32,000 nucleotides of DNA. It comes from Candidatus Electronema halotolerans. GTDB lineage: Bacteria > Desulfobacterota > Desulfobulbia > Desulfobulbales > Desulfobulbaceae. Below are positions 2,920-31,781 of this stretch, one piece after another. How positions within the stretch are numbered: position 1 is the stretch's first letter; every line of letters begins with the position of its first letter. The stretch is taken from the NCBI GenBank assembly GCA_942493095.1, contig OW818675.1, positions 960,001-992,000 of the forward strand. Direction: 5' to 3'. The notes beneath the pieces were generated by a model. It ran no database searches. It worked only from the letters and a program-made list of their open reading frames with translations, and was not told where the DNA came from. Position numbers and translations under genes: made by a program.

Positions 2920-4017
2920 ATGAACAGAAATAAAAAGATTGAGCAGCTCCAGCAGCTGCTTCAACGACGCAAAATTGATGCGGTGCTGATCACCCAGCCG
3001 GAAAACCGCCGTTATCTGAGCGGCTACACCGCTGCTGATCACGGCATTCAGGAAAGCTCCGGGGTGCTGCTGATTCCGAAAAAAGGCGCGCCGTGGCTGC
3101 TTACAGATTCCCGCTTCACGCTGCAAGCTGAGGAGGAGGCGCAGGGCTTCACGGTTGAGCTGTACAAAAAAGGATTGTTCAAACTGCTGAAAAAGCTGCT
3201 GCCCGCCTTGGGGATACGGCGGCTGGCCTTTGAGAGTCATCATTTTCTCCACTCCGCTGTTGCGAGAATGGAGAACGTCTTGGGCAGCAAGACAGAGCTG
3301 CTGCCAGTGACAGATGTGGTCGAAGCAATGCGGCTGGTCAAGAGCGAGGAGGAAATCAGCCTGATTAAGGCATCTGTCCTGCGCAACGAGCAGGTTTTTC
3401 AACAAATTCATGGCCTGATCGCGCCGGGCATGACAGAAATCGACATTGCCCTGCATATCGAACGCATCATGCGGGAACAGGGCGCGGAACGGCCCAGCTT
3501 TGAGACCATTGTCGCTTTTGGCACGAACGCGGCCAAGCCGCACGCTGTGCCCTCAAAGCGGGTGCTGCTGGAAGGCGACCTTGTCCTGATCGACATGGGT
3601 TTGGTCCTGCAAGGCTATTGCTCGGACATGACCCGCACTTTTGTGGCTGGCAAGCCGGACAGCCTCTTTCTTGAACGGTTGCGGGTGGTACGCAAAGCCC
3701 AGCTTGCTGGCATCAAGGCCATCCGGGCTGGAGCAGTCTGCAAGGACGTGGATCAGGCCGCCCGCAAGGTGATTGCCGATGCTGGTTACGGCGACTTTTT
3801 CGGCCACAGCTTGGGGCACGGAGTCGGCTTGGCCGTGCATGAAGCCCCCAGCCTCAGCACCCGCAACCGGAAGAAATTGCAGGCTGGCATGATCGTCACC
3901 ATTGAGCCGGGCATTTATCTGCCCGACTGGGGCGGCATCCGGCTGGAAAACATGGCAGTTGTCCGCGAGGACGGCTGCGAGCTGCTCAACGAGGACTCAA
4001 CCGGGCTGGATTTGTAA
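2920..4017 (+). CDS. Xaa-Pro aminopeptidase / M24B family metallopeptidase
   Basis: Creatinase-like N-terminal domain (IDAVLITQPENRRYLSGY) and the M24 metal ligand pattern (DMG..., HSLGHGVGLAVHE, IEPGIY, ENM). The ATG at 2920 is chosen over the long upstream extension of the 2692 ORF. Confidence 0.85.
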   Translation: MNRNKKIEQLQQLLQRRKIDAVLITQPENRRYLSGYTAADHGIQESSGVLLIPKKGAPWLLTDSRFTLQAEEEAQGFTVELYKKGLFKLLKKLLPALGIRRLAFESHHFLHSAVARMENVLGSKTELLPVTDVVEAMRLVKSEEEISLIKASVLRNEQVFQQIHGLIAPGMTEIDIALHIERIMREQGAERPSFETIVAFGTNAAKPHAVPSKRVLLEGDLVLIDMGLVLQGYCSDMTRTFVAGKPDSLFLERLRVVRKAQLAGIKAIRAGAVCKDVDQAARKVIADAGYGDFFGHSLGHGVGLAVHEAPSLSTRNRKKLQAGMIVTIEPGIYLPDWGGIRLENMAVVREDGCELLNEDSTGLDL

Positions 4018-4056
4018 ACGCATCCAGCCCGGCGGCACAAAGGGCCGGGCGGTTTG

Positions 4057-5517
4057 TCAGCACTCCATCCGGCAAAGACCCTTTCCCTCGATGCAGAGCG
4101 GGCAGATGTGACTCTGCTGGGCCGGACTGATGTCCAGCTCCTCCATCCTCGCCTTGACCGACTCAACCGTCTGTCTGCTCAGTTCCTTGGCCATGCCGAT
4201 GTGCTTTTCCGGCAGGATGGCCTGCTCAATATCCTTGCGGCAAAACCTGCCTGCCACTTCAGGCTGCTCCATAAGAATGTCCAACACCGGCCTACCGCTC
4301 TCCACTGCCTCCATTGAGACCTCATAGACCAAGGCATGGGCGTTCTCCTTGCCGATCTTGGTGCCGATGAAAAACATCAGGGCCTCGCTGGAGATCAGCG
4401 GCGCGGCCCGGAGCACGTTCTCCCGCACGCAGCCCTCATGGACAATCATATCCCTGAGTATATGCTGCATCATGTTCAGCAGGCCGCAGATGTAGAGCGA
4501 GGCATCGGTGAGCGCAGCCCATTCCACCCGCACGGAACGGTAGTCGCGCTCATGCTCGCAGATCAGGCCGTCATAACCAAGCATGGCCTGCGCTTTGATC
4601 AGTTTGGCCAGGACCACGACCTGCTCGCACAGCTCCGGGTTGCGCTTGTGCGGCATGGTGCTGCTGCCGATCTTGCCAAGATGGAACGGCTCCTCCAGCT
4701 CGCCGATCTCGTTGCGGGCCAGACAGCGGATTTCATCAGTAATCCGGGCCAGTGAGCCGCTGATCAGGGCCAGCACGGACAGGTATTCGGCAAAGCGGTC
4801 GCGGGAGGAATGCCAGGCCGTGTTCGGTGCTTCCAGTCCCAGCCGGGCCGAGAACTCAGCCAGCAGCGGCAGGGCGCGTTCGCCAAAGGCATCCATAGTC
4901 CCGACTCCGCCGAAAAGCTGGCTGACCAAGACCCGCTTCTTCATCTCCTCCAGCCGCTCAATGCTGCGCCATGTCTCGTCCAGCCAGCCTGCCATTTTCA
5001 GGCCCAAGGTCATGGGCAGGGCGTGCTGACAGTGGGTGCGGCCTATCATGACCAAGTCCTCATACTGCTTGGTGCGCTGGATGAGCAGGCGGACAATGCT
5101 GTGCAGGTCGCGCTCGACAATGGAGATGATGTCGCGCAGCTCCAGCACTTGGGCCGTGTCCTGAATGTCCTGCGTAGTGGCTCCGAAATGGATGAACTGG
5201 CCTGCCTCCTTGTCGCAGGCGTTGCGCAGGGCTGCCAGCAGCGGCATCAGGGAATGATTGGTCACTTGCAGCCCTGCCTGTATCTCGGCAAGGTCAAACC
5301 TGCTGATCTGGGCATTTTGCTGGATGTTCTCCGCCGCTGCCAGCGGAATGATGTCTAGCCCGGCCATTGCCATTGCCAAGGCAGCTTCCACGTCTAACCA
5401 GCGTTGATAGCGGCGGATGTCGCAGAAAACTTGCCGTGCTTCCGGCGTGGTGTAGCCGCCGGAGTAGAAGCGGGAATCAACAATATGGCTGTTAGGAGCG
5501 CAAGTGGTCATAATCAT
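4057..5517 (-). CDS. adenylosuccinate lyase / fumarate-lyase superfamily protein with a Cys-rich C-terminal tail
   Basis: Carries the GSSTMPHKRNP lyase-1 signature, HFGATTQDI and TQRP-like regions. An extra C-terminal segment ends HICPLCIEGKGLCRMEC. Confidence 0.8.
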   Translation of the reverse strand: MIMTTCAPNSHIVDSRFYSGGYTTPEARQVFCDIRRYQRWLDVEAALAMAMAGLDIIPLAAAENIQQNAQISRFDLAEIQAGLQVTNHSLMPLLAALRNACDKEAGQFIHFGATTQDIQDTAQVLELRDIISIVERDLHSIVRLLIQRTKQYEDLVMIGRTHCQHALPMTLGLKMAGWLDETWRSIERLEEMKKRVLVSQLFGGVGTMDAFGERALPLLAEFSARLGLEAPNTAWHSSRDRFAEYLSVLALISGSLARITDEIRCLARNEIGELEEPFHLGKIGSSTMPHKRNPELCEQVVVLAKLIKAQAMLGYDGLICEHERDYRSVRVEWAALTDASLYICGLLNMMQHILRDMIVHEGCVRENVLRAAPLISSEALMFFIGTKIGKENAHALVYEVSMEAVESGRPVLDILMEQPEVAGRFCRKDIEQAILPEKHIGMAKELSRQTVESVKARMEELDISPAQQSHICPLCIEGKGLCRMEC

Positions 5518-15340: not shown

Positions 15341-15447
15341 TGTCGAGAATGGTGCAGGAATCAACCCGCGAGGAAACATTGAAGAAAATTCGGGTCGGGA
15401 AATTGGCCTTGATCACGCCGGTGAGCACATCTATTGAAGGACGCTGC
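15341..15447 (-). pseudogene. 107-bp internal fragment of ftsK (motor-domain segment), orphan copy
   Basis: Ungapped alignment to 21011-21117 within ftsK at a constant offset of 5670 gives 98/107 identical by hand count. It would encode [35 protein letters not shown] versus fts[36 protein letters not shown]. There is no start codon and no surrounding ftsK sequence. Confidence 0.85.
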
Positions 15448-15466: not shown

Positions 15467-16021
15467 CTACGGTAAGGACGAATTAGAACTGGCGCATTTT
15501 CTGCGCTGTTTATCAAGCAAGATTTTTCTTGCCGCTCTCTTGGGCAGGCGGAGCAGGAAGACAATCGGTCGTTCAATAAGCGAGATGGACGGCGACAGTT
15601 TTCCCAGCAGGAGATTGACTGTCCGCCACGTTCGGCTTTCGTAATGCGTCGTCCTGCCGTTTCGGGTTACTTTGCTGATGATGCCGAGGAAATCAGCCGC
15701 AGAAACGGGCGGGTCGCAGCGGTATCTGCGGTCGCTCTTGGTCAGCAGATGTTGCTTTCCGTCAAGCTGGATGCAACGAAGAAAGCGATGTGCTTTCAAT
15801 CTGCCGTTGACATGATAGACCGCAACATCGCCACAGCGGAGCGTATCCGCCTGTATTGGTTTGATGAAAATCAAGTCGCCCTCGCGGAGCAGCGGTTTCA
15901 TGCAGTGACCGGTGAGCGTGATTTCCACCGGCTCGCCCTTTTGCAGCAGCAGGATGATGATCTTGTAATAATCATGCTTTTTGAAAAACTCCTCCTGAAA
16001 GGTGCTGCCGGAATCTGTCAT
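15467..16021 (-). CDS. S24/S26-fold peptidase-like protein with Cys at the nucleophile position
   Basis: [13 protein letters not shown] aligns to the G-x-S-M-x-P-x-L-x-x-GD nucleophile motif of LexA/signal-peptidase-fold enzymes. GDVAVY...LKAHRF aligns to the GD(i/v)v.f...(K/H)R(v) general-base region. The start overlaps the kinase stop (ATGA). Confidence 0.6.
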
Positions 16022-16854
16022 ACCGTTTCAATATGTTCCGTGAGCAGGCGGGCTGCTGCCGTCGCATCGTTGTGGATAAGCTGAAAAGCATTCGCCTTTT
16101 TCACTACTTCGGCCATCTGCTCAATGCTTGCAACGGATTTTGCCCTGCCGATCTGGGCATTCATCAGGCGCAGCAGGGCTGCTGATTTCTTCATCGGTGC
16201 AAGAGAAGGCGGTTTGTCCGGGTCGTAGCGGACAAAGAAGATGCTGTGCAGCGGCGCAGGTTTGCCGTGTATCGCCTTTGGCACGGCAATCTGATGATCC
16301 GCACCAAAGCTGCGCACCGGCCAGGATGGAGCAAGGCGGACAATACCGGTCTCTTTGCAGGACACGGTTTTGAGAAAGGGATGAACAATCTGTCCGGCAT
16401 CCAGCAGGCCGACTTCATCGGTAAGATAAGCCCAACCGTGGTTTGCGATCAATTCAAGAGTGAGGGTTGATTTACCGTGACCGCTTTCGCCGAGCAGCAG
16501 GATTGCGCTGTTGTTTCTGCTGACCGCACCGGCATGAAGGGTGATCAGCTCTTGTTTGTCAATCTGGTTAATGGCGTGGCCGGAGACGATATTCTCCAGT
16601 GCCTTGCTCAGGAGGGCAGAGGGAACGGCGTGCAGCTCGCGGCCCCAGTCAAAGGCGATTTTCCCTTGTTTCCAGATGGAAAAGCAGTCGGGCTGATCAG
16701 CACTCGGCAGAACGGTTATTTGTGCTGCTGTCTTATCCGGCGGAGCAGGGCTGAGAAACTCCTGCCACATGTAATCGCAGAACTGGTTAAGTTCTGCGAG
16801 CGGGGTTTCAAGGCGGATGAGGGTTTTGGTGATGGAGTAGAAGCTCTCAGGCAT
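16018..16854 (-). CDS. HprK-related P-loop kinase (HPr kinase C-terminal-domain-like)
   Basis: LHAGAVSRNNSAILLLGESGHGKSTLTLELIANHGWAYLTDEVG matches HprK-related kinase A/B-type proteins. The start overlaps the radical-SAM stop by 8 nt. Confidence 0.75.
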   Translation of the reverse strand: MPESFYSITKTLIRLETPLAELNQFCDYMWQEFLSPAPPDKTAAQITVLPSADQPDCFSIWKQGKIAFDWGRELHAVPSALLSKALENIVSGHAINQIDKQELITLHAGAVSRNNSAILLLGESGHGKSTLTLELIANHGWAYLTDEVGLLDAGQIVHPFLKTVSCKETGIVRLAPSWPVRSFGADHQIAVPKAIHGKPAPLHSIFFVRYDPDKPPSLAPMKKSAALLRLMNAQIGRAKSVASIEQMAEVVKKANAFQLIHNDATAAARLLTEHIETV

Positions 16855-18259
16855 GGCTTTCCGCCTGCACTTCCTCCACCAAGCCTAATTTCTGGAAGGC
16901 GGCAAGCTGGCCGTAGATGTCGTCTTTGATGGTGTCAAATTCCACTTCGCAGACGTTGGCAATCTCTTGGGCGATTTGTTGGGCGGTGCGGTGGCCGTTG
17001 ATGAGATCCCAGATGGCCATCCCCATTGAATTTAATGCGTACCTTTTATCGTGATTACATAACAACCCTTCTTCTTTTAAATCTATCGTTGTTATGTTTG
17101 GACATCTCGTCATTACAGTACGTTGAGCAGAAGGAAGATCATTTTTACCGCATCTGTTATCATAAGGTATGTTTTTCATTTGAAATTCATTTTTATTTTT
17201 GATCATATATCTCAGAACGGCAGTAATTATTGTTTTGTTAAACAAACATAAATAATTAGCAGACAAATCGTTATTATATTCGTGAATACAGACACCTCCG
17301 CACAAAAAAATATATTGGCACTCCGAGCAGTGATCCCTGTATATGTTTTGAATATTGATGTTTTCTATTTTTTCTTTATCTATCCCGTTACGGGTGTTGC
17401 CAATCAAATATTTTGAGTGACTGACAAAACGATGACAGGGAAAGAAGTCTCCGTTAAAAGATACTGTTATTTTGTTTCTTCCAATACCGCATCTCGTAGC
17501 TTTCTTTTGAGAAAGAAAAGTATTTATTATACGTTGAACGTTATATATCGTGCTGTTTAAATTCCCCTTTTCTTTATACGAAAGAATAATACTATCAACT
17601 ATATCTAACAGTTGCTGTTGACCAACAGCATTACTATCATTAGTGGTTACAGGTGTTACTATTCCAAATACTACCATTTCATTATTTTGCAAGATTCCTA
17701 TATCAGAGTAATTCCTTAAAATATCGTAAGGTAAATCAGTGTTTGCTGTCAAAGTAACTCTAATTTGATACTTCACGTTGTATTTTTGCAATATTTTTAT
17801 ATTATTAACTATTTTGCTAAAACTCACACCCCCCTTCTTGTATCTTCTTTGAAGATCATGTGTCTGTTTTTTTCCGTCTAACGTAACTTGAATATGAACT
17901 TTGTTATCGTGACAAAACTTAGCTATTTCATCATCTATTAAAGTTCCATTAGTTATTATTCTAAATGATAAGTCATTTTTATGATCTATTTTACTTATTA
18001 ATCTATTGATTGTATATCGAATTTTAGAAAACTCAATTAATGGTTCTCCGCCAAAAAATGATACTTTTACACATCCACGATGTTTCTTCTCATAAATATC
18101 AATGAAGTTGTCAATATCGTTTTTAGATAACGATTTTTTTCTATTCGTATACTTATCACCAGCTTTCAGATAGCAGTAAGTGCATTGAAGATTACAAGAA
18201 CCGGTTATATCTATCTCGACATCTGATACATCTTCCAACATGCACTTAATCTCCGCCAT
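16847..18259 (-). CDS. radical SAM / SPASM-domain peptide maturase with a C-terminal PqqD (RRE) domain
   Basis: CNLQCTYCY is the CX3CX2C motif. SFFGGEPL is the GGE motif. The SPASM region is CGIGRNKITVSFNGDFFPC...CSECQYIFLCGGVC (CX2CX5CX3C). The C-terminal ITTIDLKEEGLLCNHDKRYALNSMGMAIWDLINGHRTAQQIAQEIANVCEVEFDTIKDDIYGQLAAFQKLGLVE is PqqD-like. An alternative ATG at 18241 has GGAG 9 nt upstream. Confidence 0.85.
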   Translation of the reverse strand: MAEIKCMLEDVSDVEIDITGSCNLQCTYCYLKAGDKYTNRKKSLSKNDIDNFIDIYEKKHRGCVKVSFFGGEPLIEFSKIRYTINRLISKIDHKNDLSFRIITNGTLIDDEIAKFCHDNKVHIQVTLDGKKQTHDLQRRYKKGGVSFSKIVNNIKILQKYNVKYQIRVTLTANTDLPYDILRNYSDIGILQNNEMVVFGIVTPVTTNDSNAVGQQQLLDIVDSIILSYKEKGNLNSTIYNVQRIINTFLSQKKATRCGIGRNKITVSFNGDFFPCHRFVSHSKYLIGNTRNGIDKEKIENINIQNIYRDHCSECQYIFLCGGVCIHEYNNDLSANYLCLFNKTIITAVLRYMIKNKNEFQMKNIPYDNRCGKNDLPSAQRTVMTRCPNITTIDLKEEGLLCNHDKRYALNSMGMAIWDLINGHRTAQQIAQEIANVCEVEFDTIKDDIYGQLAAFQKLGLVEEVQAESHA

Positions 18260-18422
18260 TATTACAGCAGCTTTGCCATGATGCCATATCGGAACACTCA
18301 GATACAGATTCACCGTTTAAATCTGTCAATTCGCATATATCTGGTTTAACATAATTCCCCTTTAAAACCTTCAACCTTCCCTCTTTAATCCCGTTTTTTC
18401 CTTTCTCATTCATATTTTCCAT
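18246..18422 (-). CDS. candidate RiPP precursor peptide (58 aa, Cys-rich C-terminus)
   Basis: MENMNEKGKNGIKEGRLKVLKGNYVKPDICELTDLNGESVSECSDMASWQSCCNNGGD. AGGAGGAG SD lies 4 nt upstream of the ATG at 18422. The stop overlaps or abuts the radical-SAM start. The gene shares the low-GC composition of the maturase. In-frame ATGs further upstream lack an SD. Confidence 0.65.
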   Translation of the reverse strand: MENMNEKGKNGIKEGRLKVLKGNYVKPDICELTDLNGESVSECSDMASWQSCCNNGGD

Positions 18423-18560
18423 GATCTCCTCCTGTTCATTCATTTCGCCAGCCATTATCGGCAATTAGATCCAACCCAATCAACCTTCATCACCATGCCA
18501 ACGAAGAAAGGCTCAAATCATCATGCAGCCTCAATCCGTTTCAGTCCGCTCAGATCAACT

Positions 18561-18958
18561 CTAAAAAAATCGGAAGCCCGCCTGCTCGAAATGATGATCA
18601 AAGGTCAGCGCAGTGGTGATCTGCATTTCCCTCATCACCACAAACGACAGACAGTCAACCAAGCCCCACGTTTTATCCTGATATCTGTTAAACAGGTTCA
18701 CTGCCTGCTTGAACAGAACAGGATTCATATAAATCAGCGTCATTTCGTCAGCTTCCTGAAAGGCGCGAATAAGCTGGCTGCATTGACGGCGGCGATGCGT
18801 GACAAAGCATTGCCCGTTTCCAGCAGGACAGCATCGGTCGTCACCAAAGGATAACCAGCGCACTGTTCCGCCAAGCTCAAGGCCCGCTTATGATAATTGT
18901 CGTTCTCGTTGATTAGGGCGATGATATACCCTGTATCAACAAACAAAGGCTCAAGCAT
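18561..18958 (-). pseudogene. vapC: PIN-domain VapC toxin, disrupted by one frameshift
   Basis: The N-terminal half (MLEPLFVDTGYIIAL...TTDAVLLETGNAL, ORF 18740-18958) and C-terminal half (NRYQDKTWGLVDCLSFVVMREMQITTALTFDHHFEQAGF, ORF 18561-18863) of one PIN domain lie in different frames. The shift maps to about 18770-18810. Confidence 0.75.
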
Positions 18959-19193
18959 TCTTCTCGCCGTTCAAGTAGGCATCAATGTTTTCAGAGAAGT
19001 CCGCAGGCCCGCTGATTTTAATCTCCTGCAACCGTGCCAGCAGGGAAGCCTTTGGCTTTGGCAGGGCAGCATCCTCGTCAATAATCACAATCACGCGCAC
19101 CGATTTGTCATCCCATGCCTGACGATACGCATCTGGAATAGTGACGGTCACTTTGCCGTCACGAGCAACCGCGTTCAGTTCAACGGCATTCAT
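18951..19193 (-). CDS. VapB-type antitoxin (small DNA-binding antitoxin upstream of vapC)
   Basis: An 80-aa ORF overlapping the vapC start by 8 nt, the typical TA architecture. The family assignment rests mainly on context. Confidence 0.5.
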   Translation of the reverse strand: MNAVELNAVARDGKVTVTIPDAYRQAWDDKSVRVIVIIDEDAALPKPKASLLARLQEIKISGPADFSENIDAYLNGEKNA

Positions 19194-19264
19194 AATCGTT
19201 CAGTTTCTTTTCTTGAGCGCGGCTAAAATATCTTGTGAAACTTCCAATCGCATTGTTTCATTCA

Positions 19265-20452
19265 TTATCTTCTTCCGATCACATACACATTGACTAATTT
19301 CAGCCAATACCTCGGATACGCCATTGCCAGCTTTCCAGCGGTGCTGACATCATACTTTCCTGCCATCCCCATCCACTCTTTCTCCGGCACAAAGGTGCGG
19401 AAAATATAAGCTGCTTTTGCGGCTGGACTCGGTTGCTGCCTCAAACTGACAAAATAACTCTTCAGTCTTTTCAAAAGAGGCATCCTGACTTTCTTAACAT
19501 ATACTTCTTCGCGCAAAAATGAAGAAAAAATCGCCTCCCTGTTCTTCAATGTCTTCTCAGCAAGAAACTGTTCTGGCACCGGTGCATCCAGCAGGATATG
19601 GGCATAACTCAAGCCTGTCATAACTTCCTTGCGCAGCTCAGGAACGACACATATTTGTTCTATTTTATGCCAATCAAGTGTTTTCTCATGCTTCCGCAGC
19701 AGTTCGTTGATGTCGCACAGTTCTCTGAGAACAACTCCCATATAATAAACATGCTTGAAAAAATGCGTACAAAGATGAATCAGCATCATTTCCTGTGTCA
19801 ATTTATGCTGATTACCGCTGACATTTACAGAACTTGCTAAAGCCTGCCGCGTGATCTCTCGAAATCTGTTGTCCTGAAAAAGTGACCTATGCACTTCAAT
19901 AGCTACTTTTTTGCATAATGGAGGAAGATGCAGACATGTTTCCGGCAGCTCGCCATGCGCTTGCGACTTTTTGACCGCATGAAGCGGTAAAGAGGATGTG
20001 TAACCAAAGTCCCTCAACTGATACCAATTCTCTTCCACATATTCCTGCTCCACCAGCAAATCAATATCGCACATTGAGCGAAGAGCAATATTCGGATACA
20101 GGCTTTGAATCAGTTCTATTCCTTTCAGCGGAATGACTTTGTTCGGCAGAATGCTGGCAATTTCCTTGAACGCTTCAAGCATCTTGGCATTTCTGAGTGC
20201 AGTGTCGTAATATTCAATTTCAGTGTCGTAATATTCAATTTGAAACCTTTTCAACAATTCTTTCGGCAGCAGATCAGTCAAATCATGCTGCCTGAAGGCG
20301 TAATAAATGAACTGACTGACCCCATGCGTGAAAGCCTTTTTCGCCACCGCCGACCAGTCCAAGCCGCTGCCTGCCAGCTCTTTCAGTGCGGCAATGTTGT
20401 CTTCCGCCAGATGCAGCCGGGCCGCATTGAAGATGAATGCGTCTTCCTTCAC
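19265..20452 (-). CDS. nucleotidyltransferase family protein (NTP_transf_5-like)
   Basis: RSMCDIDLLV, the surrounding pattern and the roughly 390-aa size match the uncharacterised nucleotidyltransferase family that co-occurs with PqqD and HprK-like genes. GTG start. GC is visibly lower than the flanks. Confidence 0.65.
   Translation of the reverse strand: MKEDAFIFNAARLHLAEDNIAALKELAGSGLDWSAVAKKAFTHGVSQFIYYAFRQHDLTDLLPKELLKRFQIEYYDTEIEYYDTALRNAKMLEAFKEIASILPNKVIPLKGIELIQSLYPNIALRSMCDIDLLVEQEYVEENWYQLRDFGYTSSLPLHAVKKSQAHGELPETCLHLPPLCKKVAIEVHRSLFQDNRFREITRQALASSVNVSGNQHKLTQEMMLIHLCTHFFKHVYYMGVVLRELCDINELLRKHEKTLDWHKIEQICVVPELRKEVMTGLSYAHILLDAPVPEQFLAEKTLKNREAIFSSFLREEVYVKKVRMPLLKRLKSYFVSLRQQPSPAAKAAYIFRTFVPEKEWMGMAGKYDVSTAGKLAMAYPRYWLKLVNVYVIGRR
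20200..20241. repeat. perfect 2 x 21-bp tandem duplication inside the nucleotidyltransferase gene
   Basis: cagtgtcgtaatattcaattt occurs at 20200-20220 and again at 20221-20241. It is in frame and duplicates EIEYYDT in the protein. Confidence 0.95.
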
Positions 20453-20606: not shown

Positions 20607-22826
20607 TTACTCCATCGAAGCCAGCACTTCTCTTGGCCGTGAACCATCGGACGGCCCGACAATGCCGTCGCGCTCCATCATCTCGATCATGCGGGCGGCC
20701 CGGTTGTAGCCGACCCGCAGCCGCCGCTGGAGCATGGAGATGGAAGCCTGCCGGGTCTCCTTGACCACAGCCACTGCCTGATCATAGAACTGATCATGCT
20801 CCTCCTCGCCGCTGTTGCCGCCGTTCTCCTCCTCGGCAAACTGGAGGACAGACTCGTCATAATCCGCACTGCCCTGCTCCTTGAGGAACGCAATGATCCG
20901 CTCGGTTTCAGCCTCGGATATGTAAGCCCCGTGAATGCGCTTGAGCTTGGCCGCGCCCGGCGGGAGAAAGAGCATGTCGCCTGCGCCGAGAAGGTGTTCG
21001 GCCCCGGAGCTGTCGAGAATGGTGCGGGAATCGACCCGCGAGGAGACCTTGAAGGAAATCCGGGTCGGGAAATTGGCCTTGATCACGCCGGTGAGCACAT
21101 CCACTGAAGGCCGCTGCGTGGCTAAGATGATGTGCATGCCAGCGGCCCGCGCCATCTGCGCCAAGCGGGCGATGGAGGTTTCCACATCTTTTGATGCGAC
21201 CATCATCAAATCAGCCAGCTCATCAACAATAATGACGATATAGGGCAGCTTTTCCTCAGCGGTCTGTTTGTTGTAGGTGGTGAAGGATTTGACCTTGGCC
21301 TCCTCCAGCAGTCGGTAGCGCCGTTCCATCTCCCGCACCGCCCAAAGCAGGGCGCGGCTGGCCATCTTCGGCTCGACCACCACCGGATGGAGCAGATGCG
21401 GAATGCCCTCATAGGCTGACAGCTCAATCCGCTTGGGATCGATCATCAGCAGGCGGACCATGTCTGGCGGGGCCTTGTAGAGCATGGAAGCAATGAAGGC
21501 GTTGATGGCCACTGACTTGCCCGCGCCCGTGGCTCCGGCAATCAGCAGATGCGGCATCCGGGCCAGATCAGCCACTGTCGGACGGCCCACCGAGTCAAAA
21601 CCCAAGGCAACCGTCAGATAGGAGCGCGAGTTTTTATACGGATTGGCAAGGAGGATGTCGCGGAGAAAGACGGTCTTGCGCTTGGGATTGGGAATTTCAA
21701 TGCCGACCGCCGCCTTGCCTGGAATCGAGCCGACCACCCGCACTCGATCTACTTTGAGCACCATTGCCAGATCATCGGCCAAGTTGACAATCTTGCTGAT
21801 CTTGATGCCAGCAGCCGGGGCGAATTCATACGTGGTCACCACCGGTCCCGGCGAAATGCCAACCACCTCACCCTGCACTGAGAAATCAAGCAGCTTGGCA
21901 GTCAAGATCGCGCTGGTTTCTTCATAATGCTGCCGGTCAATTTCCACATCCTCCAAGCTGTTCTCCTCCAGCAGGGTGATGGGCGGCAGCTCAAAGTTCT
22001 GCCAGTCAACCGGTTTTTTCTTCTTGGGAGGCTCCTCTGTTTTTTTGCCCTTCTTATCCGGTGATGATGGACTGCTGCCAGCTTCCGCCTTGCCTGCCTC
22101 ACGAAGAAAAGGCAGCTTCTGGATGATCACCGCAGGCAGGCTGGGCAGATTTCTGACAGGAGCAGGTTCCGGTGCTGGCGGTGGCGGCAGAGCTTTGCGC
22201 TGCTCGCGCTCCTCCTTCCACGCAGTCAGTTTTTCCCGCAGCGGCTCTTCCAGCGCAGCCATCTTGCCGCCTGCGTTCCGAGCCTGACCCCAGAGCCAGA
22301 AGGAAAAGGCGATGGGCGAAAAGCGCACTGCCGCCATCAGGGAGAAAATCAGGAGCAGGAGCAGGAGCAGGGCCGAGCCAACCCCGCCGAGCAGATTGCC
22401 GAGCAGGCGGTGCAGCAGGCTGCCGAGAAAGCCTCCCGGTGCAACTAACTCTGGTGGAAAAATAAGTTTATCCAAACTTGCCAAGAGACCGGAGGCGGCC
22501 AGCAGCACTCCGGTCAGTCCGGCAACAATGAAGGGAAGACGGTCAATGGCGGCTTGGGCCGTGAGAACAGTCGCAGCGAGTTGGAAAAAGAGCAGGGGCG
22601 GAAAAAAGGAAATCAGGCCGAAAAAGGAGAACAGATAGCGGGCTGTGTAATAGCCGAAATGGCCGCACCAGTTCGCTGCCGGGAGCTGGACTTGCGGTTG
22701 CGAGCCGAGCAGCGGCAGGCTGTAGCTGATCAGACTGAGCAGCAGAACCATGCCCAGAAACAGGCAGGTGACTGCCGCCGCCTCCTGCTGGAGCCGGGCC
22801 TGCCGGGCCAAGGCTGCGAGGCGCAT
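20607..22826 (-). CDS. ftsK: DNA translocase FtsK
   Basis: N-terminal TM helices, a Pro/Lys-rich linker, the motor domain (PHLLIAGATGAGKS, IVIIVDELADLMM, ATQRPSVDV) and the C-terminal gamma wHTH (SISMLQRRLRVGYNRAARMIEMME). The ATG at 22826 is preferred over the TTG at 22829. Confidence 0.95.
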   Translation of the reverse strand: MRLAALARQARLQQEAAAVTCLFLGMVLLLSLISYSLPLLGSQPQVQLPAANWCGHFGYYTARYLFSFFGLISFFPPLLFFQLAATVLTAQAAIDRLPFIVAGLTGVLLAASGLLASLDKLIFPPELVAPGGFLGSLLHRLLGNLLGGVGSALLLLLLLIFSLMAAVRFSPIAFSFWLWGQARNAGGKMAALEEPLREKLTAWKEEREQRKALPPPPAPEPAPVRNLPSLPAVIIQKLPFLREAGKAEAGSSPSSPDKKGKKTEEPPKKKKPVDWQNFELPPITLLEENSLEDVEIDRQHYEETSAILTAKLLDFSVQGEVVGISPGPVVTTYEFAPAAGIKISKIVNLADDLAMVLKVDRVRVVGSIPGKAAVGIEIPNPKRKTVFLRDILLANPYKNSRSYLTVALGFDSVGRPTVADLARMPHLLIAGATGAGKSVAINAFIASMLYKAPPDMVRLLMIDPKRIELSAYEGIPHLLHPVVVEPKMASRALLWAVREMERRYRLLEEAKVKSFTTYNKQTAEEKLPYIVIIVDELADLMMVASKDVETSIARLAQMARAAGMHIILATQRPSVDVLTGVIKANFPTRISFKVSSRVDSRTILDSSGAEHLLGAGDMLFLPPGAAKLKRIHGAYISEAETERIIAFLKEQGSADYDESVLQFAEEENGGNSGEEEHDQFYDQAVAVVKETRQASISMLQRRLRVGYNRAARMIEMMERDGIVGPSDGSRPREVLASME

Positions 22827-22829
22827 CAA

Positions 22830-26969: not shown

Positions 26970-28545
26970 TTATACTGCGGCATCGGGGATAAAAGGACTT
27001 CCAAGGAAAGCATCTTTGATCGCTTCAAAAATGTTTCTTGAATTTTTACGGACCGTGGAGATATATCCCCGGATACAGGCGAATCGTTCTGCCCCCTCAA
27101 GTGTTCGGAAGCAGCCGGAAACCTTCTGCTTGACCTTGATCATCCGCACATCTCTTTCCGCCGCGTTGTTGTCGAACGGAACCCGGAAATCATACATGAA
27201 TGCGAGGGTCTCCGCCCTGTAATCACGCATCCGTGTCAGCAAATTGAGCGGCGGAGTCTTCTTCACCCGTCCTCGTTTTTTCTCCTTAGGGTACCTCGAA
27301 AAATACCGATTTTGCCGAAGGCGTGATCGAATAATCAGACATTTACAACGCAACAACTGCCAAAAATACCAATTTTTCGAGGTACCCCTTAGGCGGAGTG
27401 AACGGATTGTCCGCAAAACCCCGTCGGACGATTTCATCATACCGCCGCTCAAATTCTTCGATCTTCTCCGGCGTGAAGCCGTCCCGATCCGGCTTCAGCT
27501 TTTCAGCCGCGCCTTTTATTTCAAGCAGCAGCTCGGCCATCTCGCCGGCCCAAACTTGTCCGTACTGTTTTTCTATGAACTTGAGTTCCCGGAGATGATG
27601 CGCATTGCACAGCGCATGACCGCAGTTTTCATAGCTGAAGTACGATTTCCAATGATCATGCGTCGCTGTTCCTGTGAACTTTCCAAGGATTCCCGCTGCG
27701 TCCATCGCCTCTTTTCCCCGTTTTTCATGCACCGAATAAAGGGTGAGGCAGTTCGTCGAAGCGACATGCAGCCAGTGCAGCTTCCCTTTCACGCGGACTC
27801 CGCTTTCATCGGCATGTAACACATCGGTATTCATGAGCAGTTTTTCGACTGCTTCCGTTGAAGGACGCACGCATCCGCAAAGCTCTTCCGATGCCTTCAG
27901 CAGCGAACCCTCGGAGACGGAATGCCCGGTCAGGTCTTCGATAATCTGCGCAGCCCGTTCAAGCGGAATATGATGCTGGTTCGCGAAATATGCCGCCCAA
28001 GTTTTCACCCCCGTGCCGTAACGGATGCCCTGTCCGACGTTTTCCGGGAATTTGCCTCTGTTTTCCGTGCCGCAGCCGGGACAGATTTTTATTTCCGCTC
28101 GATGCGAGGTCACTTCAATCCGAATCGCCGGAATATCATAAACCTGCCGTTCCTCCTCTCCGACAGCGACGACATCCGCAAGCGACATTTTGCAAGCCGC
28201 GCATTCCTCGGATTTATACCTCTCCGTAGAATCCGGCGCCGCAGACCGCTCAAGAGTATGCCCTTGATGACCTGGCTGGCCGCCGTTCGGCTTCCTGCCG
28301 GACTCTCTCAGACTTTCCGTTCGCTTCGCTTTACCGTATCCATCGCTCGAAGGCGGTTTCCCGCTGTTCCGACTGTTTTTCGACAGCCGGGCCTGCAAAT
28401 CCTTCAATATCTCGGACTGCTTGGCTGACTGAGCGGCGAGGTTTTCAACCTGCGCAGTTATACTGCTAAACAGGGCGACGACCGCTTCTTCGCCTTCTGC
28501 GTATGCAGCACGGACTTCTTTTTCACTAGGAACACTGAAATTCAT
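26970..28545 (-). pseudogene. IS66-family transposase split by a 97-bp insertion
   Basis: ORFs 27343-28581 and 26970-27452 carry consecutive IS66 transposase regions (zinc-ribbon-like CAACK...CPGCG, HADESG, CNAHHLRE, then [24 protein letters not shown]). Removing 103 bp (element plus one repeat copy) joins ...PFTPPK to [12 protein letters not shown]... in frame. Confidence 0.85.
27289..27385. mobile_element. MITE-like 97-bp nonautonomous element
   Basis: It has perfect 15-bp terminal inverted repeats, GGTACCTCGAAAAAT and ATTTTTCGAGGTACC. These are flanked by the direct repeat CCTTAG (27283-27288 and 27386-27391). It has no coding capacity. Confidence 0.7.
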
Positions 28546-28560
28546 AACGGCAGCATAATC

Positions 28561-28609
28561 TTTACCTGTTGATTTTGTCAAGAGGCTTGGCGGATGCCTG
28601 AGTAGTTAC
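28561..28609. repeat. 49-bp IS66 end sequence, copy 1 (part of the IS)
   Basis: tttacctgttgattttgtcaagaggcttggcggatgcctgagtagttac is identical to 28878-28926. Confidence 0.9.
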
Positions 28610-30295: not shown

Positions 30296-31781
30296 GTAAG
30301 CGATCACAGGGTACCGCTCAGACCCAGCTTAAATCCGGCATCTGTCCTCTGAAATAGCAGCGCATGGCCTCGGTGAGCACCTCGAAAGTGGATTTTCCCC
30401 GAAGCAGGCATGTCTGCCGGAGGGAAAGGATTCGTTCAACCCAGCGGTTTCCCTTGTCGCTGTCAGTGCCCTGACTCCGTTTGCGCCACAGCACGCCGAA
30501 GCGGAGCATCCGTTCCGCTGGATTATTTGTCGGCTCTACGCCTTCTTCGAGCAAGAAAGTGAACAACGCCTCCATTTCCTTGTCAATATGACGGACAAAC
30601 CTCCCCGCATCACTGTCGCAATCGCGCCAGCGTAGGATAAGTCGGCAGAGCCGGGCATAAAATGCGGACCATTCACCTTTGGTCGGCGGGTCTTTCGCCA
30701 TGCGGCAGAGCCGCCGCAGTTCCGCAGCGGCCCATTTGCCGCAGGCGGCCAGTTCAGGGTCAGCGCGCTCCGCAAGGCCGTCTGCCCGGCGGATAAGATG
30801 CGCGAGGCAAGTCTGCCGCTTGCCGACCCATTTTTGGTACACGTTGTATCCGTCGCTGATGAGAATACCGTTCCAAGCACCGATCAGTTCTTCAAAGGCT
30901 TCCTTAGAGCGTTTCGGATGAATCATGAAGAACGCGGCCTGCCGGTTCGCCATAACCCATAACCAGCGCAGCCTGCCGCCAGTTTTCCACGTTGTTTCAT
31001 CAACATGTCCGATATCCCCGCTTGTGACGGCAGCCCGGACGGCCTCATAGTGCGGCGCGACAGCCGCCGAAGCCCGGTCAATGATCTTCTGCACCGCCCC
31101 GGCGCTGATAGGAACGCCGAGCACGGAACGGATGAATTTCCGCACAGTTCCCCGGCTGCTGCCGTCCATGCCGCTCAGTTCGGCAACCAGCGCGGTGAAC
31201 CGCGCCCCGAAACCGGTTCTGAATTCATCGGGAACACAGCCTCTGACGGTTTTGCCGCAGGCGGCGCATTCCCCTTTATAAAGAAGGAAATGCCTGACCT
31301 GCATCACGATTTCCGGCAGTTCAATATGCTGATGCGTATAATATGACCGTATGTTTTTGAATTTGCCGCAACCGCAGGAGCAGGCGGAAGGATACATTTT
31401 TTGCGTTTCTGTCGGCGGCATCAGCTCCTGACGATATCCACGCCGCTTTTTCCGGGGCTTCCCCGCCTGATCTCTCTGCCGTTTTTCTGTAAACGGAGAG
31501 TCGGAAGAAGGCGGCCTGTTCGAGTTCGAGGAATCTTCGCCGAGTTTCGCCTCAAGCTCTTCGACCCGTTTTCTCAGCCGCGTTACCTCAGCGATCAAAA
31601 AAGACAGCAGCTTCCGCACCGCAGGAGGTGTAGCGGCAAGGTCTTCCTCGCTTATCTCAAAATTTTCACGATGGAACGGGGCGGTCACAGCTTTCTCCTG
31701 CGGAAAAAATTACTGCTCACAATTTATCCAGTTGCGATGCCAAGCGCCAGTGTTTTTTAGAGACACCCTGTGATCAGTTAC
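30296..31781 (-). mobile_element. intact IS66-family insertion sequence (single ORF) with 8-bp target duplication
   Basis: IRs are GTAAGCGATCACAGGGT (30296-) and ACCCTGTGATCAGTTAC (-31781), matching at 15/17. They are flanked by GTTTAAAC at 30288-30295 and 31782-31789. Confidence 0.9.
30318..31688 (-). CDS. IS66-family transposase
   Basis: N-terminal coiled coil (RKRVEELEAKL), Cys clusters (CSCGCGKF, CAACGK), HVDETTW, CLAHLIRR and TNNPAERMLR motifs. GTG start with AGGAGAAAG SD. Confidence 0.9.
   Translation of the reverse strand: MTAPFHRENFEISEEDLAATPPAVRKLLSFLIAEVTRLRKRVEELEAKLGEDSSNSNRPPSSDSPFTEKRQRDQAGKPRKKRRGYRQELMPPTETQKMYPSACSCGCGKFKNIRSYYTHQHIELPEIVMQVRHFLLYKGECAACGKTVRGCVPDEFRTGFGARFTALVAELSGMDGSSRGTVRKFIRSVLGVPISAGAVQKIIDRASAAVAPHYEAVRAAVTSGDIGHVDETTWKTGGRLRWLWVMANRQAAFFMIHPKRSKEAFEELIGAWNGILISDGYNVYQKWVGKRQTCLAHLIRRADGLAERADPELAACGKWAAAELRRLCRMAKDPPTKGEWSAFYARLCRLILRWRDCDSDAGRFVRHIDKEMEALFTFLLEEGVEPTNNPAERMLRFGVLWRKRSQGTDSDKGNRWVERILSLRQTCLLRGKSTFEVLTEAMRCYFRGQMPDLSWV

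Follow-up and report, generated by a model that had tools for sequence, protein, structure and literature searches.

The question raised by this locus is whether a 58-codon open reading frame (ORF), found immediately upstream of a radical S-adenosylmethionine (SAM)/SPASM maturase gene in a 32,000-nucleotide window of the cable bacterium Candidatus Electronema halotolerans (contig OW818675.1, positions 960,001 to 992,000), encodes the precursor of a peptide that is made by ribosomes and then modified post-translationally (RiPP) and, if so, how the peptide is modified and varied. The ORF (18246-18422) lies on the minus strand, with ATG at 18422 and TAA at 18248-18246, and encodes 58 residues (MENMNEKGKNGIKEGRLKVLKGNYVKPDICELTDLNGESVSECSDMASWQSCCNNGGD) with Cys at positions 30, 43, 52 and 53. 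The comparisons reported here make it very likely that the ORF is a genuine RiPP precursor. The wider reading, likewise considered likely, is that the precursor belongs to an undescribed family and is served by an operon-encoded modification pathway, and that in cable bacteria it is subject to cassette exchange. The family is undescribed and is named here the CSDMAS-motif peptides.

The precursor ATG is preceded by the Shine-Dalgarno (SD) sequence AGGAGGAG (18426-18433, minus strand) at a distance of 3 nt (atc), and this SD is kept at the DNA level in the comparison loci L003 and L004. An earlier reading, made from the letters of the window alone and called here the sequence-only reading, had reported the 58-residue ORF with the sequence found here, and its SD spacing of 4 nt is corrected to 3 nt. 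That reading had overlooked the strand, as well as the leader motif, the NTP_transf_5 partner, the SEC11-like Cys peptidase and the structure of the cassette. Longer versions of the ORF starting at ATG 18455 or TTG 18464 were considered and rejected, because the SD precedes ATG 18422 and homologues from outside the cable bacteria begin at the equivalent Met. The stop codon falls 4 nt short of the deposited maturase start (ATG 18241). Thus, the proposal that the ORF ends within the first codons of the maturase does not hold for the deposited start and is correct only for an in-frame start further upstream, at ATG 18259 or GTG 18313. The precursor-maturase gap in Ca. Electrothrix sp. AR3 is, like that of the window, 4-5 nt. 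In L001 (323-677) the gap is 355 nt, though the tail of the peptide is identical to that of the window. A promoter and terminator scan revealed nothing beyond the shuffle expectation, with one weak promoter-like site at 18483-18454, and an Rfam scan of the island returned no match. The peptide is absent from the deposited proteins, among which four start variants were checked; the deposited neighbours are CAK8715114 to CAK8715153.

An ATG-initiated ORF of at least 58 codons was present in 6% of shuffles of the 301-nt segment. Since ORF length alone is not beyond chance, conservation carries the case for a real gene. The ratio of nonsynonymous to synonymous substitution (dN/dS) was 0.35 for the precursor versus that of Ca. 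Electrothrix sp. AR3 and 0.25 for L003 versus L004, while comparison with L001 showed saturated synonymous sites (pS 0.77) and a pN of 0.26. The C-terminal 17 residues (ECSDMASWQSCCNNGGD) are the same in the window, AR3 and L001, the last with a 3-residue insert, and the differences in the corresponding 17 codons are exclusively synonymous (3 of 3 versus AR3 and 8 of 8 versus L001). Judged by these comparisons, the 58-codon ORF is a genuine gene under purifying selection.

A single-sequence search with the precursor returned one homologue (P0001, 67% identical). The DNA upstream of maturase homologues contained a co-oriented small ORF in the equivalent position in every case read, and these ORFs have a common N-terminal motif and the CSDMAS motif. 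A profile built from nine precursors retrieved 28 small proteins, and a HMMER profile search of 1.84 billion representative proteins yielded 55 clusters, reduced to 54 by removal of one false positive, the 480-residue repeat protein P0140, which was rejected as a family member. Apart from that protein and one 35-residue fragment, the clusters range from 53 to 98 residues. A six-frame scan of 98 sequences (97 fetched loci and the window) detected the precursor signature in 24, those with a closely related kinase or maturase. Among the loci with a closely related kinase, none for which the upstream DNA was available was without it, and where the fetched contig included the radical SAM/SPASM gene, the signature ORF lay just upstream of that gene. 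No signature was detected by the same scan in approximately 70 control loci having only distant HprK-like kinases. The sequence-only reading had assigned the ORF as precursor for the adjacent SPASM maturase and had named lack of conservation in homologous loci as a reason to abandon the assignment; a conserved small ORF was found across those loci, in support of the assignment. The precursor and 29 family members, scanned against NCBIfam and Pfam, gave no match, in agreement with the view that it belongs to no known precursor family.

The layout of the family was derived from 35 distinct sequences, and invariance of residues R16, L20 and M46 from 29 sequences. Following an N-terminus rich in Lys, Asn and Glu, all parts are arranged as a leader motif, a spacer, the CSDMAS motif and a hypervariable tail. 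The leader motif R16-L-K-V-L-K-G-N-Y-V-K-P27 (18342-18377, this and the following parts all on the minus strand) conforms to the family pattern R-x3-L-x3-[YW]-x2-[PA], with the extended consensus G-I-K-E-x-R-L-K-x-L-K-x-x-Y-x-K-P, and is presumed to be the sequence recognized by the RiPP recognition element (RRE). No variation occurs at R16, L20 or M46, and conservation reaches at least 90% at Y24 and P27. The spacer D28-E42 (15 residues, 18297-18341) is 13-15 residues long in 35 of 35 sequences and variable in its residues; Cys occurs anywhere in the spacer in only 5 of 35, and Cys30 of the window is not conserved, being replaced in both closest homologues. The four-Cys core that the sequence-only reading began at ICELTD is thus not upheld, since that stretch is the variable-sequence spacer. 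The conserved Cys residues of the precursor are C43, C52 and C53.

The CSDMAS motif (C43-S48, 18279-18296) is a candidate kinase and peptidase site, with C43 and D45 as candidate donor and acceptor of a thioether. It is exact in 27 of 35 sequences, with M in 35, D in 34 and C in 33 of them. The earlier suggestion that several Ser residues could be kinase targets is narrowed by this conservation pattern to S44 and S48 as candidate sites. The S-x-M-[AG] portion of the motif resembles the HPr site K-S46-I-M-G, a likeness that may serve only as a lead. The tail WQSCCNNGGD (18249-18278) is the probable core peptide. Family tails are hypervariable from the first residue past the motif and contain 4-39 residues and 0-6 Cys, with at least one Cys in 30 of 35 and none in the remaining five; tail types recur on different leaders. 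In L014 (Prolixibacteraceae) two precursor genes are arranged in tandem (3946-4149 and 4361-4543), with the tails SPMGSCGSGDTYPGA and CCCVVIKY and one maturase.

The maturase (16847-18241, minus strand, 464 residues, CAK8715132.1) was deposited as a hypothetical protein. It matched the radical SAM model PF04055 with 70.7 bits, and the CX3CX2C motif (C16/C20/C23) is invariant in 10 homologues. Also invariant in these homologues are seven SPASM Cys, comprised of C251, C269 (preceded by G264-x4), C305-x2-C308-x5-C314-x3-C318 and C332; the Pfam SPASM model alone scored below its cutoff (18.5 versus 21.5). The C-terminal PqqD-like RRE proposed in the sequence-only reading was confirmed by PF05402, which matched residues 400-455 with 38 bits versus a cutoff of 23.4. 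The best NCBIfam match was PapB (NF047865), at 192 bits versus a cutoff of 340 and thus outside the family, followed by the nif11 maturase, the SCIFF maturase (TIGR03974, 147 bits versus 425, also outside), CcpM and QhpD, all far under their cutoffs. A PDB sequence search returned CteB as the best match (E = 1e-31) and the anaerobic sulfatase-maturating enzyme anSME as the second. The nearest relatives, PapB by NCBIfam and CteB by PDB sequence, are therefore of the thioether-forming type, as had been expected. An AlphaFold (AF2) model of the maturase had a pLDDT of 79.8, and its fold matched anSME (top), CteB, ChlB, TigE, SkfB and SuiB, with EpeE also among the matches. The RRE domain (16865-17119, minus strand) was delimited by secondary structure of the model, PF05402 and a break in GC content. 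It is composed of four strands (375-403), three helices (405-451) and a final strand (455-459).

The maturase gene belongs to a recurrent operon of NTP_transf_5, precursor, radical SAM/SPASM-RRE, HPr-kinase-like kinase and SEC11-like Cys peptidase genes. The kinase (16018-16854, minus strand, 278 residues, CAK8715128.1) has an invariant P-loop, G122-x-S-G-x-G-K-S-T130, and scored 74.6 bits against TIGR04352 (HprK-related kinase A), for which the cutoff of 200 places it outside; it had no match in plasmid or phage collections. The presumed leader peptidase (15467-16021, minus strand, 184 residues) is a homologue of SEC11 and archaeal-type signal peptidases that aligns to human SEC11A/C (7p2q, 9rjb, 7p2p) with a best E of 2e-6. 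It has Cys40 at the nucleophile position in place of the SEC11 Ser (GHCMKP versus SGSMEP), and Cys40, His78 and Asp97 are invariant in 7 loci. The S24 and sigpep_I_arch models matched weakly, and a score of 36.3 versus 51.85 for TIGR02228 leaves the protein outside the S26B Ser-His-Asp family; no description of a Cys-His-Asp variant of a SEC11-like peptidase was found. The NTP_transf_5 (PF14907) nucleotidyltransferase (19265-20452, minus strand, 395 residues, 145 bits), also deposited as a hypothetical protein, is encoded upstream of the precursor and is present in the fetched loci with long enough contigs. PDB sequence searches with the kinase and with the NTP_transf_5 protein gave no useful match. 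The PADLOC defence models produced only a generic match of the radical SAM core to pVip and none for the kinase, the peptidase or the NTP_transf_5 protein. The operons of L014, L006 and L008 include an ABC transporter, an addition present in some loci from outside the cable bacteria.

The base composition of the operon is divided. An AT-rich variable cassette of approximately 1.4 kb and 31% GC (17021-18414, minus strand) contains the precursor from about codon 9, the radical SAM/SPASM domains and the RRE beta-sheet. Values are ∼31% GC for the precursor and radical SAM portion, ∼54% for the RRE helices, kinase and peptidase, and ∼56-60% for the flanking chromosome. The break at ∼17040 is inside the maturase ORF, such that RRE strands 375-403 are AT-rich and carried on the cassette, and helices 405-451 and strand 455-459 are GC-rich and resident. 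Alignment with L004 followed the same division. Identity was 97-100% from 21090 to about 18415, fell to the alignment background of 40-60% across 18414-17021, rose to 77-87% at 17020-16931 and returned to 97-100% from 16930 to 15402. The 5' junction is directly past codon 8 of the precursor. Beyond it the leader motif retains ∼60% DNA identity to L004, which is attributed to constraint. The 3' junction is at ATGGCCATCTGGGA (M-A-I-W-D), where the beta-sheet of the RRE gives way to its helix alpha-1, and is common to L002, L003, L004 and L010, the flanks of which are 70-97% identical to the window.

Two further loci bear on the origin of this arrangement. In L012 (Ca. Electronema sp. KV) the radical SAM gene has its own AT-rich PqqD, and behind it stands a separate and complete PqqD ORF that is GC-rich. 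Such an arrangement resembles the unfused state and suggests that the in-frame fusions arose via recombination at the shared MAIWDL patch. The resident module of L098 is ∼80% identical to that of the window, and its cassette has the nearest counterpart in a Prolixibacteraceae locus, with 53% amino-acid identity versus 32-43% for other cable-bacterial alleles; both cassettes encode the tail CCCVVI[KR]Y. In the Bacteroidota loci the whole system is AT-rich. In cable bacteria the cassette would be exchanged by recombination between the RRE helices, kinase and peptidase on one side and a conserved 5' flank on the other, comprised of the upstream region, the ribosome-binding site and the first 8 codons, and near-identical genomes would therefore make different peptides. 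A more ambitious version is put forward only tentatively: that cable bacteria and some Bacteroidota have a plug-and-play system of peptide diversification in which a cassette enters a resident scaffold with the 3' crossover in the RRE fold, and that the products form a new RiPP class. If the locus does serve diversification, the modified peptides displayed by a multicellular filamentous bacterium would differ between near-identical strains, with discrimination among strains or antagonism as examples of a use, and the products would carry both radical SAM cross-links and phosphorylated Ser, possibly along with nucleotidyl or glycosyl groups. A Ni-dithiolene (NiBiD) cofactor is described for cable-bacterial fibres (PMC12093952). 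A link of the present locus to this cofactor was rejected, because the locus is a strain-variable island that is also present in Bacteroidota and has hypervariable tails.

The pathway proposed for the peptide probably consists of Cys thioether cross-linking, Ser phosphorylation and leader removal, a chemistry inferred from the enzymes encoded, and each single mechanistic detail is offered as possible at best and in some cases as doubtful. The leader motif (G11-P27) would dock on the C-terminal RRE of the maturase, and the 13-15-residue spacer would place the CSDMAS motif and the tail in the radical SAM/SPASM active site; the fixed spacer length suggests a ruler between the RRE-bound motif and the active site. 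The radical SAM/SPASM domains may then form at least one cross-link, most likely a Cys thioether, with C43 to D45 and the tail residues C52 and C53 as candidates; the C43-x-D45 pair is near-universal in the family. The kinase is predicted to phosphorylate S44 or S48 of the motif, and the nucleotidyltransferase may extend the Ser phosphate, as in phosphoglycosylated lasso peptides. Finally, the Cys-His-Asp SEC11-like peptidase would remove the leader, the likeliest cut being after M46-A47-S48, with release of the modified 10-residue peptide WQSCCNNGGD. Cleavage after S48 is favoured because the residue at -1 is small (S, G or T among family members) and that at -3 carries no charge, which fits SEC11-type specificity.

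Several observations weigh against this pathway or against the exchange of cassettes as described. Met at -3 is unusual for cleavage of the signal-peptidase type. The absence of Cys from five of the 35 tails means that cross-linking of tail Cys cannot be the universal reaction, and C43 is missing in two members and S44 in two others (n = 35), with the consequence that no single Cys-based reaction suits every member. The tails of the window and L001 are identical and their catalytic domains only 36% identical, from which it follows that co-variation of core and enzyme is not strict. The scores of the maturase, kinase and PqqD domain are well under the curated cutoffs of named families, and by fold the Cys/Ser oxidase anSME outranks the thioether synthase CteB. 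No exporter is encoded in the island of the window, and the cassettes of cable bacteria have a persistently low GC content.

That the ORF arose by chance, or is conserved as a non-coding element, for instance a regulatory leader, is hardly credible. Its length is matched in the fraction of shuffles given above and it is unannotated in the source genome, but 54 homologous small proteins are conserved at the amino-acid level, the differences in the C-terminal 17 codons are synonymous only, dN/dS is below 0.4, the SD is strong and no Rfam family matches. Very improbable, too, is a core of approximately 30 residues starting at about I29-C30 (ICELTD), in which four Cys would form sactipeptide- or ranthipeptide-type thioethers to acidic or hydroxyl residues. 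PapB, the best NCBIfam match of the maturase, cross-links CX3D motifs, and C30-E-L-T-D34 is such a motif; moreover, AR3 and L001 each have one extra Cys upstream of CSDMAS, though at a different position. However, D28-E42 is constant in length and variable in sequence among the 35 homologues, and contains Cys in five of them; C30 is replaced in both closest homologues, and conservation of sequence starts at C43.

A genuine precursor on whose conserved motif the radical SAM enzyme performs chemistry other than thioether formation, the tail being a specificity or activity element, is unlikely. Such chemistry could be the conversion of C43 or S44 to formylglycine in the manner of anSME, an epimerisation, or the formation of a C-C or C-O cross-link. 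The top rank of anSME by structure and second rank by PDB sequence, the presence of EpeE, SuiB and TigE among the fold matches, and the finding that only the motif Cys is near-universal while five of 35 tails are free of Cys are consistent with such chemistry. Sulfatases are modified at the motif C/S-x-P/A-x-R, which CSDMAS does not match, and the hidden Markov model ranking favours the thioether-forming families (PapB, nif11 maturase, SCIFF maturase, CcpM and QhpD), as do the Cys-containing tails of the majority (30 of 35). There is also some chance, though a doubtful one, that CSDMAS is retained in the mature product as an N-terminal ring or phospho-site, with the cut made upstream of C43, after E42 for instance, and a product of CSDMAS plus the tail. 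Conservation of C, S and D is as strong as that of M, A and S, beyond the need of a cleavage site, and a tail of 4-5 residues would seem too short for a product by itself; PapB and QhpD make small thioether rings, and C-x-D could yield one in the same manner. Against a cut at this position, the position preceding C43 is occupied by any of E, D, K, N, Q, I and G, which would be unusual for -1, hypervariability starts right after S48, as at typical leader/core junctions, and M-A-S with a small S, G or T at -1 suits SEC11-type specificity.

Between the NTP_transf_5 gene and the precursor is a toxin-antitoxin-like pair (18561-19193, minus strand) that is probably outside the peptide pathway. It consists of an 80-residue ORF (19193-18951) and a PIN-domain (VapC-like) gene (18561-18958, minus strand), the latter interrupted by the deletion of 1 nt from a C-run near 18792, which leaves two ORFs. 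The PIN gene of L004 is intact (132 residues) and the toxin-antitoxin DNA of L004 is 99% identical to that of the window; the split gene is either a pseudogene or the result of a homopolymer sequencing error. The 3' end of the NTP_transf_5 gene and the sequence just downstream (19212-19284) match 218-287 of L012 and 1063-1122 of L015 with 87-88% identity over 60-73 bp, and in Ca. Electronema sp. KV and Ca. Electrothrix AR3 the matching sequence is where another toxin-antitoxin module (UPF0175/DUF3368) starts. This suggests that conserved sequences have also flanked a replacement of the toxin-antitoxin module that separates NTP_transf_5 from the precursor.

The 5.6-kb island is bracketed by an imperfect 107-bp direct repeat (15341-15447 and 21011-21117, 91.6% identical), one copy of which is inside an ftsK-like ORF (20607-22829, minus strand) and the other between the peptidase gene and an rsmI-like gene. 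The contig of L004 ends within this repeat at both ends. No integrase was found in the 5.6-kb island. Upstream of the precursor in L098 (6287-6481) is a fragment of ∼200 bp with ∼75% identity to the middle of the peptidase gene, a remnant indicating that the system was rearranged or duplicated in tandem in the past. Two IS66-family transposase genes are located towards the right end of the window (27343-28581 and 30318-31688, minus strand), accompanied by direct repeats at 28561-28609/28878-28926, 29909-29962/31853-31906 and 30182-30268/31877-31960.

The results add to the radical SAM peptide natural products a well-defined, unannotated precursor family of approximately 54 clusters. The combination of a radical SAM/SPASM-RRE enzyme, an HPr-kinase-like kinase, a nucleotidyltransferase and a Cys-variant SEC11-like peptidase is one without a described product. 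The constant leader-to-motif spacing and the single conserved CSDMAS motif provide handles for reconstitution in vitro. The cassette is a natural experiment in RiPP modularity, with the leader and RRE helices fixed and the core and catalytic domain swapped, and the join inside the RRE fold is relevant to the engineering of hybrid maturases. The locus also reveals strain-level variation in cable bacteria, of which, to our knowledge, there is as yet no pure culture and the secondary metabolism is essentially unstudied. What is rated as new is the precursor family and its enzyme set, joined to an unusual cassette exchange internal to a domain. No published account of a CSDMAS peptide system was found in the literature searched.

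Among known systems, the ranthipeptide and SCIFF pathways (PapB-PapA for freyrasin; CteB-CteA) are similar in having a Cys-containing precursor adjoining a radical SAM enzyme with CX3CX2C, a 7-Cys SPASM domain and an RRE. They differ in the position of the RRE, which is C-terminal here, the homologous catalytic region of CteB beginning at its residue 101. The precursor has no similarity to the six-Cys-in-45 model of SCIFF or to PapA models, with none of the 29 family precursors matching NCBIfam, and the Cys-free tails (5 of 35) are a further difference. The kinase, NTP_transf_5 protein and SEC11-like peptidase form no part of the ranthipeptide and SCIFF pathways. Phosphorylated and phosphoglycosylated lasso peptides (the paeninodin kinase; PsmK/PsmN of pseudomycoidin) share with the present locus an HPr-kinase homologue, a nucleotidyltransferase, a PqqD-like RRE and a small precursor. 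In lasso peptides the HPr-kinase homologue phosphorylates a Ser of the precursor, whose phosphate then receives a hexose from the nucleotidyltransferase (PMC8498205), and no other precedent was found for tailoring of a peptide Ser by a kinase and a nucleotidyltransferase. Neither a lasso cyclase (asparagine-synthetase-like) nor a B2 transglutaminase-like protease was detected in the ORFs of the window or in related loci, a radical SAM/SPASM enzyme taking the place of both. Lasso kinases target the C-terminal Ser. Here, by contrast, Ser is the last residue of only 4 of 35 tails, and the tail of the window ends in Asp.

The SynChlorMet (SCM) cassette, GeoRSP and HprK-related kinase A systems, which were defined bioinformatically, have a comparable content of radical SAM/SPASM, PqqD-like and HprK-like proteins; we know of none with an experimentally established product. 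Scores versus cutoffs were 76.9/400 for ScmE, 26.7/100 for ScmD, 16.5/125 for ScmC and 23.5/100 for geo_PqqD_fam, placing the locus outside these families, and in contrast to them the PqqD domain is fused here to the radical SAM enzyme. As classified by these profile scores, the locus is a radical SAM pathway of RiPP type outside the curated thresholds of PapB, SCIFF, ScmC/D/E, GeoRSP PqqD, HprK-related kinase A and archaeal signal peptidase I. With regard to the exchange itself, the staphylococcal agr specificity groups and the pneumococcal blp/com pherotypes, hypervariable loci of peptide signals and bacteriocins, arise from a central block swapped between conserved flanks in close strains. 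As in those loci, the swapped block of the present system contains the variable part of the peptide and also that portion of the enzyme by which the peptide is handled. It differs from them in that the cassette contains no receptor or immunity gene, in the sharp contrast of base composition (∼31% versus ∼54% GC), and in the location of the 3' junction within the RRE, between the beta-sheet and the helices.

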